From: Escherichia coli
GTDB lineage: Bacteria > Pseudomonadota > Gammaproteobacteria > Enterobacterales > Enterobacteriaceae
Reading direction: 5' to 3' (one strand)
NCBI RefSeq assembly: GCF_003334255.1
Contig: NZ_QOWU01000038.1
Length of the DNA stretch: 49,700 nt
Shown here: positions 8,203-48,554 of the stretch, piece by piece
Layout: the number at the start of each line of letters is the position of its first letter
Numbering within the stretch: position 1 is the first letter of the stretch
Notes under the pieces: generated by a model
Database searches by the model: none
Told to the model about the DNA's origin: nothing
Seen by the model: only the letters and a program-made list of their open reading frames with translations
Translations under genes and position numbers: made by a program

Positions 8203-8242
8203 CTCCAGAAAAAAGAGGGTAGCAGCGTTAACTGCTACCCTC
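8203..8242 (-). terminator. Intrinsic terminator/attenuator hairpin between gltI and gltJ
   Basis: Perfect 11-bp stem gagggtagcag/ctgctaccctc (8215-8225 / 8232-8242), loop cgttaa, followed on the minus strand by TTTTTT (8214-8209) that runs directly into the gltJ ribosome-binding site. Confidence 0.7.
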
Positions 8243-8370
8243 GAAGATTGTTACCCAGCGTATTGCGGTTTTCAGGCCCGATGGGGAACGACCATCAGGC
8301 GTATAGTCTGTCCGTGCTACGTAACAATCGAGAGGGCTGGAATTTCCGCCCCTGGTTCTTGTAATTAGTT
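8209..8370 (-). ncRNA. sroC: gltI 3'UTR-derived small RNA (SroC-like)
   Basis: Positional: the gltI-gltJ spacer ending at the hairpin terminator is where SroC is described in E. coli; the 5' end is not determinable from sequence alone. Confidence 0.45.
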
Positions 8371-16756: not shown

Positions 16757-16831
16757 TGGCTGGGGTACGAGGATTCGAACCTCGGAATGCCGGAATCAGA
16801 ATCCGGTGCCTTACCGCTTGGCGATACCCCA
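16757..16831 (-). tRNA. glnV: tRNA-Gln (anticodon CUG)
   Basis: Minus-strand 75 nt: TGGGGTATCGCCAAGCGGTAAGGCACCGGATTCTGATTCCGGCATTCCGAGGTTCGAATCCTCGTACCCCAGCCA; anticodon loop TTCTGAT, encoded CCA end. glnV and glnX are identical so the symbol is nominal. Confidence 0.9.
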
Positions 16832-16878
16832 ACAAATTGGTTTTGAATTTGCCGAACATATTCGACACATTCAGAATT

Positions 16879-16955
16879 TGGTGGCTACGACGGGATTCGA
16901 ACCTGTGACCCCATCATTATGAGTGATGTGCTCTAACCAACTGAGCTACGTAGCC
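16879..16955 (-). tRNA. metT: Elongator tRNA-Met (anticodon CAU)
   Basis: Minus-strand 77 nt: GGCTACGTAGCTCAGTTGGTTAGAGCACATCACTCATAATGATGGGGTCACAGGTTCGAATCCCGTCGTAGCCACCA. Confidence 0.9.
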
Positions 16956-19244: not shown

Positions 19245-19390
19245 ATGCCGGATGCGGCGTGAACGCCTTATCCGGCCTACAAAAGCATGAAAATTCAATA
19301 TATTGCAGGAGCTGCGTAGGCCTGATAAGCGTAGCGCATCAGGCAGTTTGGCGTTTGTCATCAGAGCCAACCACGTCCGCAGACGTGGTT
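19245..19390. repeat. BIME/REP cluster and hairpin between asnB upstream region and nagD
   Basis: catgccggatgcggcgtgaacgccttatccggcctac and gtaggcctgataagcgtagcgcatcaggc, plus hairpin aaccacgtc-cgca-gacgtggtt. Confidence 0.6.
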
Positions 19391-20195: not shown

Positions 20196-21416
20196 TTAAT
20201 TTTCCAGCAAATGCTGGAGCAAAATACCGTTGAGCATGGCGCGTTTTACCAGCGCAAAAGCGCCGATTGCCGAGCGGTGATCCAGCTCAGAACGTACCAC
20301 CGGCAGATTAGTGCGAAACGCCTTCAGCGCCTGGGTATTAATGCAGCTTTCAATAGCAGGGAGCAGCACTTTATCGGCTTCGGTGATTTCACCGGCAATA
20401 ACAATTTTTTGCGGATTAAATAAGTTGATAGCAATGGCGATGGTTTTACCCAGATGACGACCGACATACTCAATTACTTCCGACGCCAGACTATCGCCTT
20501 TGTTCGCGGCTTTGCAGATAGTTTTGATGGTGCAGTCGTCCAGCGGCACGCGGCTCTGGTAGCCCTGCTTTAACAGATTCAACACCCGTTGTTCAATGGC
20601 AGCGTTGGCAGCGATAGTTTCCAGGCAGCCAAAGTTGCCGCAGTGGCAGCGTTCACCCAGCGGTTCGACCTGAATATGGCCAATTTCACCGACGTTGCCG
20701 TTGCGGCCAATAAAAATGCGCCCGTTAGAGATAATCCCGGCCCCGGTTCCGCGATGGACACGCACCAGAATGGAGTCTTCGCAATCCTGACTTGCACCGA
20801 AGTAGTGCTCCGCCAGCGCCAGACTACGGATATCGTGACCAACGAAACAGGTCACTTTAAAACGTTCTTCCAGAGCTTCTACCAGCCCCCAGTTTTCTAC
20901 CTGAATATGCGGCATGTAATGAATTTTGCCGCTGTCCGGGTCAACAAGCCCTGGCAGGATCACCGAAATCGCGATCAGCTCGCGCAGTTTGCGCTGGTAG
21001 CTATCAATAAACTGAGCAATGGCATTCAACAGGGCATGTTCCAGCGTTTGCTGGGTACGTTCCGGCAGCGGGTAATGTTCTTCTGCCAGCACTTTGCTGC
21101 TGAGATCAAACAGAGTGATGGTGGCGTCATGACGACCAAGCCGTACGCCGATTGCGTGGAAATTGCGGGTTTCGGTGACGATGGAGATAGCGCGGCGGCC
21201 CCCGGTGGAGGCCTGCTGATCAACTTCTTTGATCAGCCCGCGTTCGATAAGCTGACGCGTAATTTTGGTTACGCTGGCGGGGGCAAGCTGGCTTTGCTCG
21301 GCAATCTGAATCCGCGAGATTGGCCCGTACTGGTCAATCAGGCGATAAACCGCCGCGCTGTTAAGCTGTTTTACGAGATCAACATTACCTATCTGAGCTT
21401 GTCCGCCTGGTGTCAT
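20196..21416 (-). CDS. nagC: ROK-family transcriptional repressor of GlcNAc utilisation
   Basis: 406 aa; N-terminal helix-turn-helix plus ROK sugar-kinase-like domain (CHCGNFGCLE zinc motif). Confidence 0.9.
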   Translation of the reverse strand: MTPGGQAQIGNVDLVKQLNSAAVYRLIDQYGPISRIQIAEQSQLAPASVTKITRQLIERGLIKEVDQQASTGGRRAISIVTETRNFHAIGVRLGRHDATITLFDLSSKVLAEEHYPLPERTQQTLEHALLNAIAQFIDSYQRKLRELIAISVILPGLVDPDSGKIHYMPHIQVENWGLVEALEERFKVTCFVGHDIRSLALAEHYFGASQDCEDSILVRVHRGTGAGIISNGRIFIGRNGNVGEIGHIQVEPLGERCHCGNFGCLETIAANAAIEQRVLNLLKQGYQSRVPLDDCTIKTICKAANKGDSLASEVIEYVGRHLGKTIAIAINLFNPQKIVIAGEITEADKVLLPAIESCINTQALKAFRTNLPVVRSELDHRSAIGAFALVKRAMLNGILLQHLLEN

Positions 21417-21424
21417 ACTTTCTC

Positions 21425-23433
<2,009 letters not shown>

Positions 23434-23620
23434 TATTCACCTCAATAAGTAAAATGTAAGCCGTTGGCGGATTAGGCATCTTTAAGCGTAACCTGGATTT
23501 GCGCAGACAGGCGTCAATCCGACCTGATTTTTTGAATGATAAAATAAGTTTTCTGGTTTAGCCAGTAAAAGGGAGTGATGATAACGATATTTGGTGACAA
23601 AACTCACAAAAGACACGCGT

Positions 23621-23645
23621 TTAATTTGCGATACGAATTAAATTT
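23621..23645. promoter_or_regulatory. NagC operator-like palindrome in the divergent nagB-nagE control region
   Basis: ttaatttgcgatacgaattaaattt (TTAATT..AATTAA inverted repeat) between the divergently transcribed nagB and nagE. Confidence 0.55.
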
Positions 23646-27589: not shown

Positions 27590-27770
27590 CGCTATGCCGG
27601 ATGGGGCGTTTACGTCGCATCCGGCAAGGAACAGACAAACAGTTTCAAACGCTAAATTGCCTGATGCGCTACGCTTATCAGGCCTACATGATCTCTGCAA
27701 TATATTGAGTTTGCGTGCTTTTGTAGGCCGGATAAGGCGTTCACGCCGCATCCGGCAAGAAACAGCAAAC
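27590..27770. repeat. BIME/REP cluster downstream of glnS
   Basis: gccggatggggcgtttacgtcgcatccggca, gcctgatgcgctacgcttatcaggcctac, gtaggccggataaggcgttcacgccgcatccggca. Confidence 0.7.
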
Positions 27771-27776
27771 AATCCA

Positions 27777-27803
27777 AAACGCCGCGTTCAGCGGCGTTTT
27801 TTC
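27777..27803 (+). terminator. Intrinsic terminator
   Basis: aaaa-cgccgc-gttca-gcggcg-tttttt. Confidence 0.7.
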
Positions 27804-28025
27804 TGCTTTTCTTCGCGAATTAATTCCGCTTCGCAATTTATCCATAAAATAAATTTAAAATAACAAAACATAATTAAATAAAATGTAACCGCTTTCATCT
27901 TGCTGGAATTTCACGCTTTTATTCTTCTGCAAGCCTTTCAACCGCAAACTTAAGCCTTGTAACAAAAATCATCAAAATATGTGCGGTTGCTCATGTTCTT
28001 ACATTCTGGTTACAGAAAGAGATTG

Positions 28026-28046
28026 ATAATTCGCGTCGCGAAAAAT
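28026..28046. promoter_or_regulatory. NagC-box-like palindrome upstream of chiP
   Basis: ataattcgcgtcgcgaaaaat (TTCGCG/CGCGAA inverted repeat) in an AT-rich promoter region. Confidence 0.45.
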
Positions 28047-28136
28047 AGTCTGTTCCTGTAGTCAGCGAGACTTTTCTCAACGCTACTTTTTTAATTTTTA
28101 TTTTTTCGCTGTTCACCTTTGGTGCAGCAATTTATA

Positions 28137-28148
28137 CGTCAAAGAGGA
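28137..28148 (+). promoter_or_regulatory. Predicted ChiX sRNA pairing site over the chiP ribosome-binding site
   Basis: cgtcaaagagga, 8 nt before ATG 28156, is complementary to the UCCUCUUUGACG core I recall for ChiX. Confidence 0.5.
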
Positions 28149-28155
28149 TTAACCC

Positions 28156-29562
28156 ATGCGTACGTTTAGTGGCAAACGTAGTACGCTGGCGCTGGCTATC
28201 GCCGGTGTTACAGCAATGTCGGGCTTTATGGCAATGCCGGAGGCTCGCGCCGAAGGATTCATCGACGATTCAACCTTAACCGGCGGTATCTATTACTGGC
28301 AGCGTGAACGCGACCGTAAAGATGTTACCGACGGCGACAAATACAAAACCAACCTTTCTCACTCCACCTGGAATGCCAACCTCGATTTTCAGTCCGGTTA
28401 TGCTGCTGATATGTTCGGCCTTGATATTGCTGCGTTTACGGCGATTGAAATGGCGGAAAACGGCGACAGCTCCCACCCGAACGAAATCGCGTTTTCAAAA
28501 AGTAATAAAGCCTATGACGAAGACTGGTCCGGCGACAAAAGCGGTATAAGCCTGTATAAAGCTGCGGCCAAATTTAAATACGGTCCGGTTTGGGCGAGGG
28601 CAGGTTACATTCAGCCAACTGGTCAAACGCTGTTAGCGCCGCACTGGAGCTTTATGCCAGGTACTTATCAGGGGGCGGAAGCCGGGGCGAATTTTGATTA
28701 CGGCGATGCTGGTGCGTTGAGTTTCTCCTACATGTGGACCAACGAATACAAAGCGCCGTGGCATCTGGAAATGGATGAGTTTTATCAGAACGATAAAACC
28801 ACCAAAGTTGATTATCTGCACTCCTTTGGGGCGAAATACGACTTCAAAAATAACTTCGTACTGGAAGCGGCATTTGGTCAGGCGGAAGGGTATATCGATC
28901 AATATTTTGCCAAAGCCAGCTACAAATTTGATATCGCCGGTAGCCCGTTAACCACCAGCTACCAGTTCTACGGTACCCGAGATAAAGTTGACGATCGCAG
29001 CGTCAACGACCTTTATGACGGCACCGCCTGGCTGCAAGCGTTGACCTTTGGTTACCGGGCGGCTGACGTAGTGGATTTGCGCCTCGAAGGCACCTGGGTT
29101 AAGGCTGACGGTCAGCAGGGATACTTCCTGCAACGTATGACTCCAACCTACGCTTCCTCAAACGGTCGCCTGGATATCTGGTGGGATAACCGTTCTGACT
29201 TCAACGCCAACGGCGAAAAAGCGGTCTTCTTCGGTGCGATGTATGACCTGAAAAACTGGAATCTTCCAGGCTTCGCCATCGGCGCTTCCTACGTTTACGC
29301 ATGGGATGCTAAACCTGCGACCTGGCAGAGCAATCCGGATGCGTACTACGACAAAAACCGGACTATTGAAGAGTCTGCCTACAGCCTGGATGCGGTCTAT
29401 ACCATTCAGGACGGTCGCGCCAAAGGCACGATGTTCAAACTGCATTTCACCGAATACGACAACCACTCCGACATCCCAAGCTGGGGCGGTGGTTACGGCA
29501 ACATCTTCCAGGATGAGCGTGACGTGAAATTTATGGTAATCGCACCATTCACCATCTTCTGA
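28156..29562 (+). CDS. chiP: Chitooligosaccharide-specific outer-membrane porin
   Basis: 468 aa; signal peptide ending AMPEARA; beta-barrel-like alternating pattern and C-terminal aromatic residue. Confidence 0.85.
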
Positions 29563-29611: not shown

Positions 29612-29938
29612 ATGAAAAAACTGATTCTCATCGCCATAATGGCATCGGGGCTGGTAGCTTGTGCGCAATCAACCGCGCCACAGGAAGACAGTCGTCTGAA
29701 AGAGGCATACAGCGCCTGTATCAACACCGCACAAGGTTCGCCAGAAAAAATTGAAGCCTGCCAGAGCGTGTTAAACGTGCTGAAGAAAGAGAAACAACAT
29801 CAGCAGTTTGCCGACCAGGAAAGTGTACGCGTACTGGATTATCAGCAGTGTCTGCGTGCAACGCAAACCGGAAATGATCAGGCGGTGAAAGCCGATTGTG
29901 ATAAAGTCTGGCAGGAAATACGCAGTAATAACAAATAA
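29612..29938 (+). CDS. chiQ: Small lipoprotein cotranscribed with chiP
   Basis: 108 aa; lipobox LVAC after a signal peptide. Confidence 0.8.
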   Translation: MKKLILIAIMASGLVACAQSTAPQEDSRLKEAYSACINTAQGSPEKIEACQSVLNVLKKEKQHQQFADQESVRVLDYQQCLRATQTGNDQAVKADCDKVWQEIRSNNK

Positions 29939-29979
29939 GTGAGAGCTGTAACTCTCGCTTTTCTTATTTCCCTTGCATA

Positions 29980-30008
29980 AAAAAGCCAACCCGCAGGTTG
30001 GCTTTTCT
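29980..30008. terminator. Bidirectional terminator between chiQ and fur
   Basis: aaaa-agccaacc-cgca-ggttggct-tttt, with runs on both sides. Confidence 0.7.
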
Positions 30009-46880: not shown

Positions 46881-48554
46881 TCAGGAGAGATATTCCGCCA
46901 CCGGACCAAGCGCCAGGGCAGGGATAAAGGTCAGTGCGCCAACCAGCAACACGGTGCCGATTAACAGGCCAACAAACAGCGGGCCGTGCGTTGGCAGCGT
47001 GCCGGAGCTGGCGGCTTGGCTCTTTTTACTCACCAGCGAACCGGCAATTGCCATCACCGGGATAATCACCCCGAAGCGACCGACAAACATGCAGAACGCC
47101 AGTAAACAGTTCCAGAACGGAGAGTTGGCGCTTAATCCGGCAAAGGCGCTGCCGTTGTTGTTAGCGGCGGATGACACGGCGTACAGCACTTCGCTAAAAC
47201 CATGCGGGCCAGGGTTGAGCATGGCGCTACGTCCGGCGTCGGTCATCATCGCCAACGCCGCGCCCATCAGCACCAGCGTCGGGGTAACCAGAATTGCCAG
47301 TGCAGTCAGTTTCATCTCGCGTACGTCGATTTTTTTACCCAGATATTCCGGTGTACGACCAATCATCAGCCCGGCAATAAACACCGCCAGCAGGACAAAC
47401 AGCATCATGCCGTAAAGACCAGAACCGACACCGCCGAACACCACTTCACCAATTTGCATCAGCCACATCGGCACCATGCCACCGAGAGCGGTAAACGAAT
47501 CATGCATCGCAATCACCGCGCCACAGGAAGCCGCCGTCGTCACGACCGCAAACAGGCTACTGACCAGCACGCCGAAACGGCTCTCTTTACCTTCCATATT
47601 GATGCTGCTGTCCGTGCCCAGTGCCAGCAGATGAGGATTACCCTGAACTTCTGCCCACATCACCACGCCTACGCAGATGACAAAAATCACTGACATCGCC
47701 CACAGCAACATGCGCCCCTGGCGGCGATCGCCCGTCACTTCACCAAAGGCAAAGCACAGCGCCGTTGGGATCAAGAAGATCGCCAGCATCTGCACGAAGT
47801 TGGTCAGTGCGGTTGGGTTTTCAAACGGATGCGACGAGTTGGCATTAAAGAAGCCACCGCCGTTAGTACCGAGCATCTTGATCGCTTCCTGAGAAGCTAC
47901 AGGCCCCATGGGTAACAGCTGTTGCGCTCCTTCAACGGTATTCACAGCCTGATAAGGCAGAAAGTTTTGCAGCGCACCTTGTTGAATAAAAAACAGTGCA
48001 ATCAACAACGCCACAGGGACTAGCACCCATAACGTGATGCGTAGCAGATCGACCCAGGCATTCCCGAGCGTGCTCATGCTCTGGCGGGTAAACGCACGGA
48101 TGAGGGCAAAAATCACCGCAATCCCGCTGGCGGCAGAAAGAAAGTTTTGCACCGTTAAGCCCGCCATCTGGCTGAAATAGCTCAACGTGGTTTCACCGCT
48201 ATAAGATTGCCAGTTGGTATTGGTGACAAAGCTGACGGCGGTATTCAGCGCCAGATCCCACGACAGCCCTGGCAACTGCTGTGGATTAAGCGGCAGATAG
48301 TGCTGACCGAGCAACATAAAAAACAGCACCGCCAGCCCCAGCATGTTCAGGCCGAGAATGGCACAAAGATATTGCTTCCAGTTCATCTCACGGTCAGAGA
48401 CGCCAAGTGCGCGAAAAAGTACGCGCTCAACGCCCGTTGTACCGGGAAGAGGAATGTCATTAATCAGCCGCGCCAGCCCGCTGCCTAAAGGACGCGCCAG
48501 CACCATTAACACCAGTAAAAACGTGGCGATCAGTAAGAACCCTTGCGCAGCCAT
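46881..48554 (-). CDS. kdpA: K+-transporting ATPase channel-like subunit A
   Basis: 557 aa from [16 protein letters not shown]..; the track ORF extends 48 codons upstream across kdpF. Confidence 0.9.

Follow-up and report, generated by a model that had tools for sequence, protein, structure and literature searches.

Expression of the chitoporin gene chiP (ybfM) is a textbook case of combined control, in which NagC acts on transcription and the small RNA ChiX acts post-transcriptionally, with chbBC and ChiZ serving as decoys for ChiX. Repression of chiP by NagC has been described (Plumbridge, 2014, as cited in PMC4098024; bioRxiv 10.64898/2026.05.02.722398), and NagC represses both chiP and chb until chitosugars have entered the cell (PMC4098024). 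Expression from the chiP promoter and 5' UTR requires inactivation of NagC, and the repression by ChiX is then incomplete (bioRxiv 10.64898/2026.05.02.722398). When chitosugars are absent, chiP is continuously repressed by ChiX, and chb mRNA, once induced, titrates ChiX (PMC4098024). Compensatory mutations demonstrated the pairing between ChiX and chiP (Figueroa-Bossi et al., 2009; Overgaard et al., 2009; both cited in PMC7815308). The decoy in the chbBC intergenic region destabilises ChiX instead of being silenced by it (PMC4098024; PMC7815308). ChiZ, a transcript of the chiP 5' UTR of roughly 90 nt (Adams et al., 2021; PMC7815308), sponges ChiX, and the control is reciprocal (PMC7815308).

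The sites bound by NagC are 23-bp quasi-palindromes, and the TT at positions -6 and -5 and the AA at +5 and +6 are their sole invariant positions (PMC4288165). C or G at +/-11 is usual in high-affinity NagC sites and A or T in the sites of the NagC paralogue Mlc; these two positions need not be palindromic, and the nagE operator itself is without C or G there (PMC4288165). The operators of the nag region act as a pair through DNA looping.

Locus and gene context

The window is the whole stretch of Escherichia coli DNA that was analysed (49,700 nt). A 721-nt query across the chiP regulatory region was 100% identical to E. coli K-12 MG1655 as well as to numerous other genomes of the species, and the chiP annotation was present under the MG1655 match. 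Window positions were converted from NC_000913.3 positions by subtracting 680178. The ORF list and the RefSeq annotation gave the gene order nagE, glnS, chiP and chiQ, followed by fur and fldA on the opposite strand, with nagBACD on the minus strand just upstream of nagE-glnS-chiPQ. Both sources place chiP, which encodes a chitoporin of 468 amino acids, at 28156-29562 (+), and chiQ, the downstream gene of the chiPQ operon, at 29612-29938 (+). The gene for the NagC repressor is a 406-amino acid ORF within the nagBACD order (20196-21416, -), and it shares the window with its proposed target, the box upstream of chiP. Position 701370 in the supplement of Adams et al. (2021; PMC7815308), which is window position 21192, is internal to nagC.

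Repeats of the REP/BIME type occupy 27590-27770, between glnS and chiP, and a query that contained them gave 40 or more matches in each E. coli genome. Next comes the intrinsic terminator of glnS (27776-27800), which consists of a 10-bp stem and a T-run. Elsewhere in the window, Rfam models matched sroC (174.8 bits), ES036/CssrF (41.1 bits) and two tRNA genes; the positions of these matches, listed together, are 8207-8369 (-), 19281-19323 (+) and 16760-16955 (-).

Promoter layout and transcript start

The 98-nt 5' UTR of chiP (28058-28155, +) is annotated in RefSeq as the small RNA ChiZ as well (ncRNA chiZ, 708236-708333). The supplement of Adams et al. (2021) reports a Term-seq 3' end at 708334, and the cloning primers given there begin with GTAGTCAGCG or TAGTCAGCG, which correspond to 28058/28059. 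The inferred promoter consists of a -35 hexamer, TTGATA (28023-28028, +), with five of six matches to TTGACA, and a weak -10 hexamer, TAGTCT (28046-28051, +; three of six matches), assigned by its position relative to the 5' end. The spacing between the two is 17 bp, and the last nucleotide of TAGTCT is 7 nt upstream of the annotated 5' end (28058). The chiP promoter was absent from the output of a consensus sigma-70 scan, in which TAGTCT, with three of six matches, fell below the threshold.

The initial annotation had described a long AT-rich leader (27800-28155) that contained a NagC-box-like palindrome. The AT-richness was confirmed, as the GC content of 27800-28150 is 26-38% and that of the flanks is about 50%. 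The extent was not: with transcription beginning at 28058, the leader measures 98 nt (28058-28155) and the palindrome is promoter DNA, situated in the spacer between the hexamers. The region 27800-28057 is outside the chiP transcript and consists of the tail of the glnS terminator and untranscribed upstream DNA. The NagC box and the ChiX site had also been offered as the explanation of the AT-richness, for which these two elements do not account.

The NagC box

The palindrome, ATAATTCGCGTCGCGAAAAAT, occupies 28026-28046 and has as its core TTCGCG-T-CGCGAA (28030-28042), a 6+1+6 inverted repeat without mismatches that is present in a single copy in the window. Extended to the 23 bp of a NagC site, it gives the putative operator GATAATTCGCGTCGCGAAAAATA (28025-28047, no strand assigned), with position 0 at 28036. 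The TT at 28030-28031 and the AA at 28041-28042 agree with the NagC rule. At +/-11 the box has G on the left (-11, 28025) and A on the right (+11, 28047), and thus C or G on one side only. The centre of the box is at about -22 relative to the annotated 5' end, and the box takes up the whole promoter spacer and overlaps the -35 as well as the -10 hexamer, a position compatible with repression through overlap with core promoter elements and common among repressors that act by occlusion. Steric occlusion of the promoter by NagC is inferred from this position.

The box was scored with a NagC matrix of nine sites that was built without chiP. The seed matrix contained three sites, namely the two nag operators in the window (23526-23548 and 23620-23642) and one published site of LEE1. 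The other six training sites, which were recovered with the seed matrix and obey the TT/AA rule, lie upstream of glmU, chbB, galP and nanC-fimB. We take the glmU, chbB, galP and fimB promoters to be NagC-regulated, and the spacings of the recovered sites, 153 bp at glmU and 212 bp at fimB, presumably agree with the literature.

The chiP box scored 20.8 bits on this matrix, six of whose nine training sites come from the three-site seed matrix and not from published footprints. It ranked second among the 49,678 positions of the window, between the operators of nagE (23.0 bits) and nagB (19.5 bits). The leave-one-out scores of the nine training sites ranged from 4.3 to 21.8, and the seed matrix alone gave the chiP box 14.2 bits. 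The expected number of positions with 20.8 bits in a shuffled 49.7-kb window is 0.005, and 0.08% of the shuffles of the AT-rich intergenic region (27780-28155) reached this score. Two secondary matches to the matrix were seen. One of them, at 23431-23453 (14.1 bits), overlaps the start codon of nagB. The other, at 29963-29985 in the spacer between chiQ and fur (13.8 bits), obeys the TT/AA rule, has C/G at +/-11 and adjoins the 3' end of chiPQ, given at 710187 in the supplement of Adams et al. (2021).

The matrix score, the position and the conservation of 28025-28047 support its assignment as the predicted NagC operator of chiP. The palindrome had initially been recognised as NagC-box-like and placed about 110 nt upstream of the Shine-Dalgarno region, and both points were upheld: the TT/AA rule is obeyed, the held-out score is 20.8 bits, and the centre at 28036 is 120 nt from the chiP ATG and about 107 nt from the Shine-Dalgarno sequence. 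The weight-matrix scan suggested at that time likewise returned a high score (rank 2 of 49,678).

The ChiX pairing site

The sequence of ChiX was taken from the annotated chiX gene (NC_000913.3, 507204-507287). Its match to the Rfam model sroB (RF00368) scored 82 bits, and the model has AAAUUCCUCUUUGAC as its conserved core. The site on the chiP leader, CGTCAAAGAGGA (28137-28148, +), is predicted to form 12 Watson-Crick pairs with nucleotides 45-56 of ChiX. At 28137-28148 the window carries cgtcaaagagga, which is found there in a single copy and is the exact reverse complement of these nucleotides of ChiX (TCCTCTTTGACG). The pairing site includes the Shine-Dalgarno sequence AAGAGGA (28142-28148, +), which ends 8 nt before the ATG at 28156. 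The chiP leader has no longer perfect complement to ChiX than this 12-nt match, which involves the conserved single-stranded CCUCUUUGAC region of ChiX. The claim that the Shine-Dalgarno region is complementary to ChiX, made in the initial annotation, was thus exact over 12 nt.

The duplex calculated for full-length ChiX and the leader was unrealistic (multi-loop), and the energies given here were computed for the single-stranded part of ChiX, with a sliding window and with the cost of opening each site. The prediction called for at 28120-28160 gave a stable duplex at 28137-28148 with a hybrid energy of -21.0 kcal/mol; opening costs of 0.9 for ChiX and 2.5 for chiP leave a net energy of -17.6. 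Of 1000 leader sequences shuffled with their dinucleotide composition preserved, 2 reached the observed duplex energy (z = -4.3). When the single-stranded part of ChiX was compared with 19,868 segments of 30 nt on both strands (mean -7.1, standard deviation 2.4), the chiP site had a z of about -5.7. The intergenic decoy of chbBC, used as a positive control, gave -28.1 kcal/mol.

A single locus exceeded the chiP site in that scan, namely 48431-48470 (+) with -23.0 kcal/mol. It was rejected as a ChiX target and regarded as a chance match, since it lies on the antisense strand of kdpA. Because the strongest duplex is antisense to kdpA, energy alone is insufficient as evidence for a ChiX site. A 12-mer composed of A and T only, at position 998, also is perfectly complementary to ChiX.

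Fold predictions gave the ChiX site an accessibility that was not above that of the remaining leader (probability of being unpaired, 0.45 vs. 0.47). RNAalifold found no consensus structure in a MAFFT alignment of 34 leaders. The folds of single leader sequences retain a 5' hairpin, a U-rich tract and a second hairpin. The length of this tract of the leader and ChiZ is polymorphic by 1 nt, with the T-run at 28101-28106 comprising six T in K-12 and seven in E. whittamii, E. albertii and another E. coli.

Conservation among enterobacteria

One ChiP search of representative genomes yielded 80 loci with 83-100% protein identity from more than 20 enterobacterial genera, including Escherichia, Salmonella, Citrobacter, Klebsiella, Raoultella, Enterobacter, Kosakonia, Kluyvera, Buttiauxella, Leclercia, Lelliottia, Trabulsiella and Pluralibacter. 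The 23-bp box was present in all loci with enough upstream DNA (79/79), even though their leaders differ in length and sequence. Nineteen positions were invariant among the 78 boxes that were tabulated, and variation was confined to the four central positions, -1 to +2. The CGC at -4 to -2 and the CG at +3 and +4 carry little information in the NagC matrix, yet they too were invariant in the 78 loci. Alignment of the 73 distinct upstream sequences showed the block formed by the -35 hexamer, the box and the -10 hexamer (28023-28051), together with the ChiX site, as conserved islands amid diverged DNA. The -35 hexamer TTGATA was 100% conserved in these sequences, and the -10 hexamer TAGTCT was nearly invariant across the genera.

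The distance from the box to the ATG ranged from 112 to 142 nt. Six Citrobacter loci (L019, L024, L026, L027, L029, and L031) initially seemed to be missing the box, which is situated about 250 nt upstream in them. In these six loci an ERIC/IRU-like insertion of about 125 bp separates the ChiX site from the second hairpin and lengthens the chiP leader to about 225 nt, with the NagC box and the ChiX site intact.

E. coli ChiX was perfectly complementary over 11 nt or more to the ribosome-binding site in 74 of the 80 loci, and over 14-16 nt in leaders of Enterobacter and of the Buttiauxella type. Conservation also includes GTCAA, a part of the ChiX site that is dispensable for the ribosome, which argues for selection on pairing and not solely on a strong Shine-Dalgarno sequence.

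The loci without an 11-nt or longer complement were five from Kosakonia (L053, L056, L062, L063, and L072) and one from a Leclercia metagenome-assembled genome (L054). The ribosome-binding site of the Kosakonia chiP genes is CGTCCAGAAGGAAT or CGTCTAGAAGGAAT (~1480-1500) and that of the Leclercia genome is CGTCAATGAGGAAT; the NagC box is intact. Paired with ChiX of the E. coli type, CGTCCAGAAGGAAT has two mismatches and one G-U pair. A Kosakonia ChiX with the seed TTCCTTCTGGACG would represent natural compensatory covariation, and one of the E. coli type would mean that control by ChiX is weakened or lost there. A metagenome search for a ChiX seed that compensates the Kosakonia site returned two unrelated chance sequences, neither of which matched sroB.

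In the 73 distinct sequences, the conservation of a block of about 40 bp further upstream (27958-27996) came close to that of the NagC box. Two 16-mers within this block, TGTAACAAAAATCATC (centre at about -92.5) and TGTGCGGTTGCTCATG (centre at about -70.5), are CRP-like, each with three mismatches to TGTGA-N6-TCACA. In the window as a whole, sequences with up to three mismatches to the CRP consensus were no more frequent than expected (150 against 169). Conservation and a class I-like position constitute the evidence that a CRP-like site may be present at chiP. It is rather doubtful that 27958-27996 is an undescribed third input to chiP. The changed pairing site of Kosakonia would imply either a co-evolved ChiX seed or loss of control by the small RNA in that lineage. 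Both the CRP-like block and the altered ChiX site of Kosakonia are minor leads, of interest to specialists.

Proposed regulation of chiPQ

The chiPQ regulatory region very probably (a probability of about 0.93) has two layers of control, NagC at the promoter spacer and ChiX at the Shine-Dalgarno sequence. The sequence identity, matrix score, duplex energy, position relative to the 5' end and conservation on which this reading draws come from the present analysis, and repression by NagC, the proof of pairing by compensatory mutations, Rho polarity and sponging by ChiZ come from the literature. At the first layer, NagC would bind the single 23-bp operator in the -35/-10 spacer and block RNA polymerase. 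The inducer of NagC is GlcNAc-6-P, and catabolism of chitosugars and GlcNAc would relieve the repression by generating it. At the second layer, the Shine-Dalgarno sequence of the 98-nt leader would pair over 12 nt with ChiX, a constitutive, Hfq-dependent RNA, and ribosome binding would be blocked. The pairing would also expose the mRNA to Rho-dependent termination inside chiP, by which chiQ would be silenced too. The chbBC intergenic decoy and ChiZ, a free fragment of the 5' UTR, would in turn titrate ChiX.

The logos of NagC and Mlc are essentially indistinguishable (PMC4288165), and the matrix alone cannot separate the two proteins, so the palindrome could be read as an operator of Mlc instead of NagC. 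The A at +11 fits Mlc sites, which have A or T at +/-11, but the G at -11 is of the NagC type, and the nagE operator, a genuine NagC target, likewise is without C/G at +/-11. Reviews and a 2026 preprint name NagC as the repressor of chiP, and the chiP-driven construct of the latter needs nagC to be inactivated (PMC4098024; bioRxiv 10.64898/2026.05.02.722398). The substrate of ChiP, moreover, gives rise to the inducer of NagC. Control of the box by Mlc in place of NagC is thus very unlikely.

The two elements could also be a coincidence, a palindrome in an AT-rich promoter and a strong Shine-Dalgarno sequence that pairs by chance with the CCUC of ChiX, both devoid of a regulatory role. Perfect 12-mer complements to some part of ChiX are not rare across the window, as the A/T-only 12-mer shows, and the strongest ChiX duplex of the window is the chance site antisense to kdpA. 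Chance accounts poorly, however, for a matrix score expected 0.005 times per window and a duplex energy reached in 2 of 1000 leader shuffles, or for two elements whose locations, the promoter spacer and the Shine-Dalgarno sequence, are precisely those suited to their action, and which form conserved islands in the diverged upstream DNA of more than 20 genera; published compensatory mutations back the pairing with ChiX (cited in PMC7815308). Coincidence is extremely unlikely. The same can be said of a palindrome that is transcribed as part of the leader and acts as an RNA hairpin or a roadblock to elongation. Its core, if transcribed, could fold into a GC-rich hairpin of 6 bp, but the annotated 5' end and the published primers put the start at 28058/28059, 11 nt downstream of the box, and the only promoter-like site further upstream (27855-27884) is in non-conserved DNA and at chance level (1 found, 1.0 expected).

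Comparison with known systems

The predicted operator and the ChiX site of chiP are confirmed as real, strongly conserved elements that have already been described in E. coli. The prior descriptions are reportedly those of Plumbridge in 2014, of Figueroa-Bossi, Rasmussen and Overgaard in 2009, and of Adams in 2021. The expected fit to the regulation of chitosugar genes was borne out, since the literature reports control of chiP by both NagC and ChiX. The present analysis adds that the motifs named in the initial annotation are exact, that the NagC box belongs in the promoter spacer, and that both elements stand out as conserved across more than 20 enterobacterial genera.

The operators of nagE-nagBACD (23526-23548 and 23620-23642) resemble the chiP box in being 23-bp quasi-palindromes with the TT/AA positions and AT-rich arms, and their scores (19.5 and 23.0 bits) are comparable to its 20.8 bits. 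Like the chiP box, the nag operators overlap elements of the core promoter and are controlled by NagC, with GlcNAc-6-P as the signal. Unlike the nag region, chiP lacks a further conserved box of high score in the 240 bp upstream; the best of the other matches near the promoter score about 10 bits and lie in non-conserved DNA. The sequence between the two nag operators includes GGTGACAAAACTCACA (23593-23608), the best match to the CRP consensus in the window (one mismatch), which is consistent with the known CAP site of the nagE-nagB region.

Repression of chiP (ybfM) by ChiX (MicM/SroB/RybC) in Salmonella and E. coli is the same system as the one at this locus, with no substantive difference. 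The Salmonella locus in our set (L017) has an identical ChiX site, ACGTCAAAGAGGATTAAC, and an almost identical NagC box. The chbBC decoy pairs with the same region of ChiX as the chiP site through the same CGTCAAAGAG core. In contrast to the chiP site, its complementarity is longer (-28.1 vs. -21.0 kcal/mol) and it is not a ribosome-binding site. ChiZ has the same coordinates as the chiP leader (28058-28155) and includes the ChiX site. It differs from the leader of the mRNA in being a prematurely terminated product of the same transcript that acts in trans on ChiX (PMC7815308).
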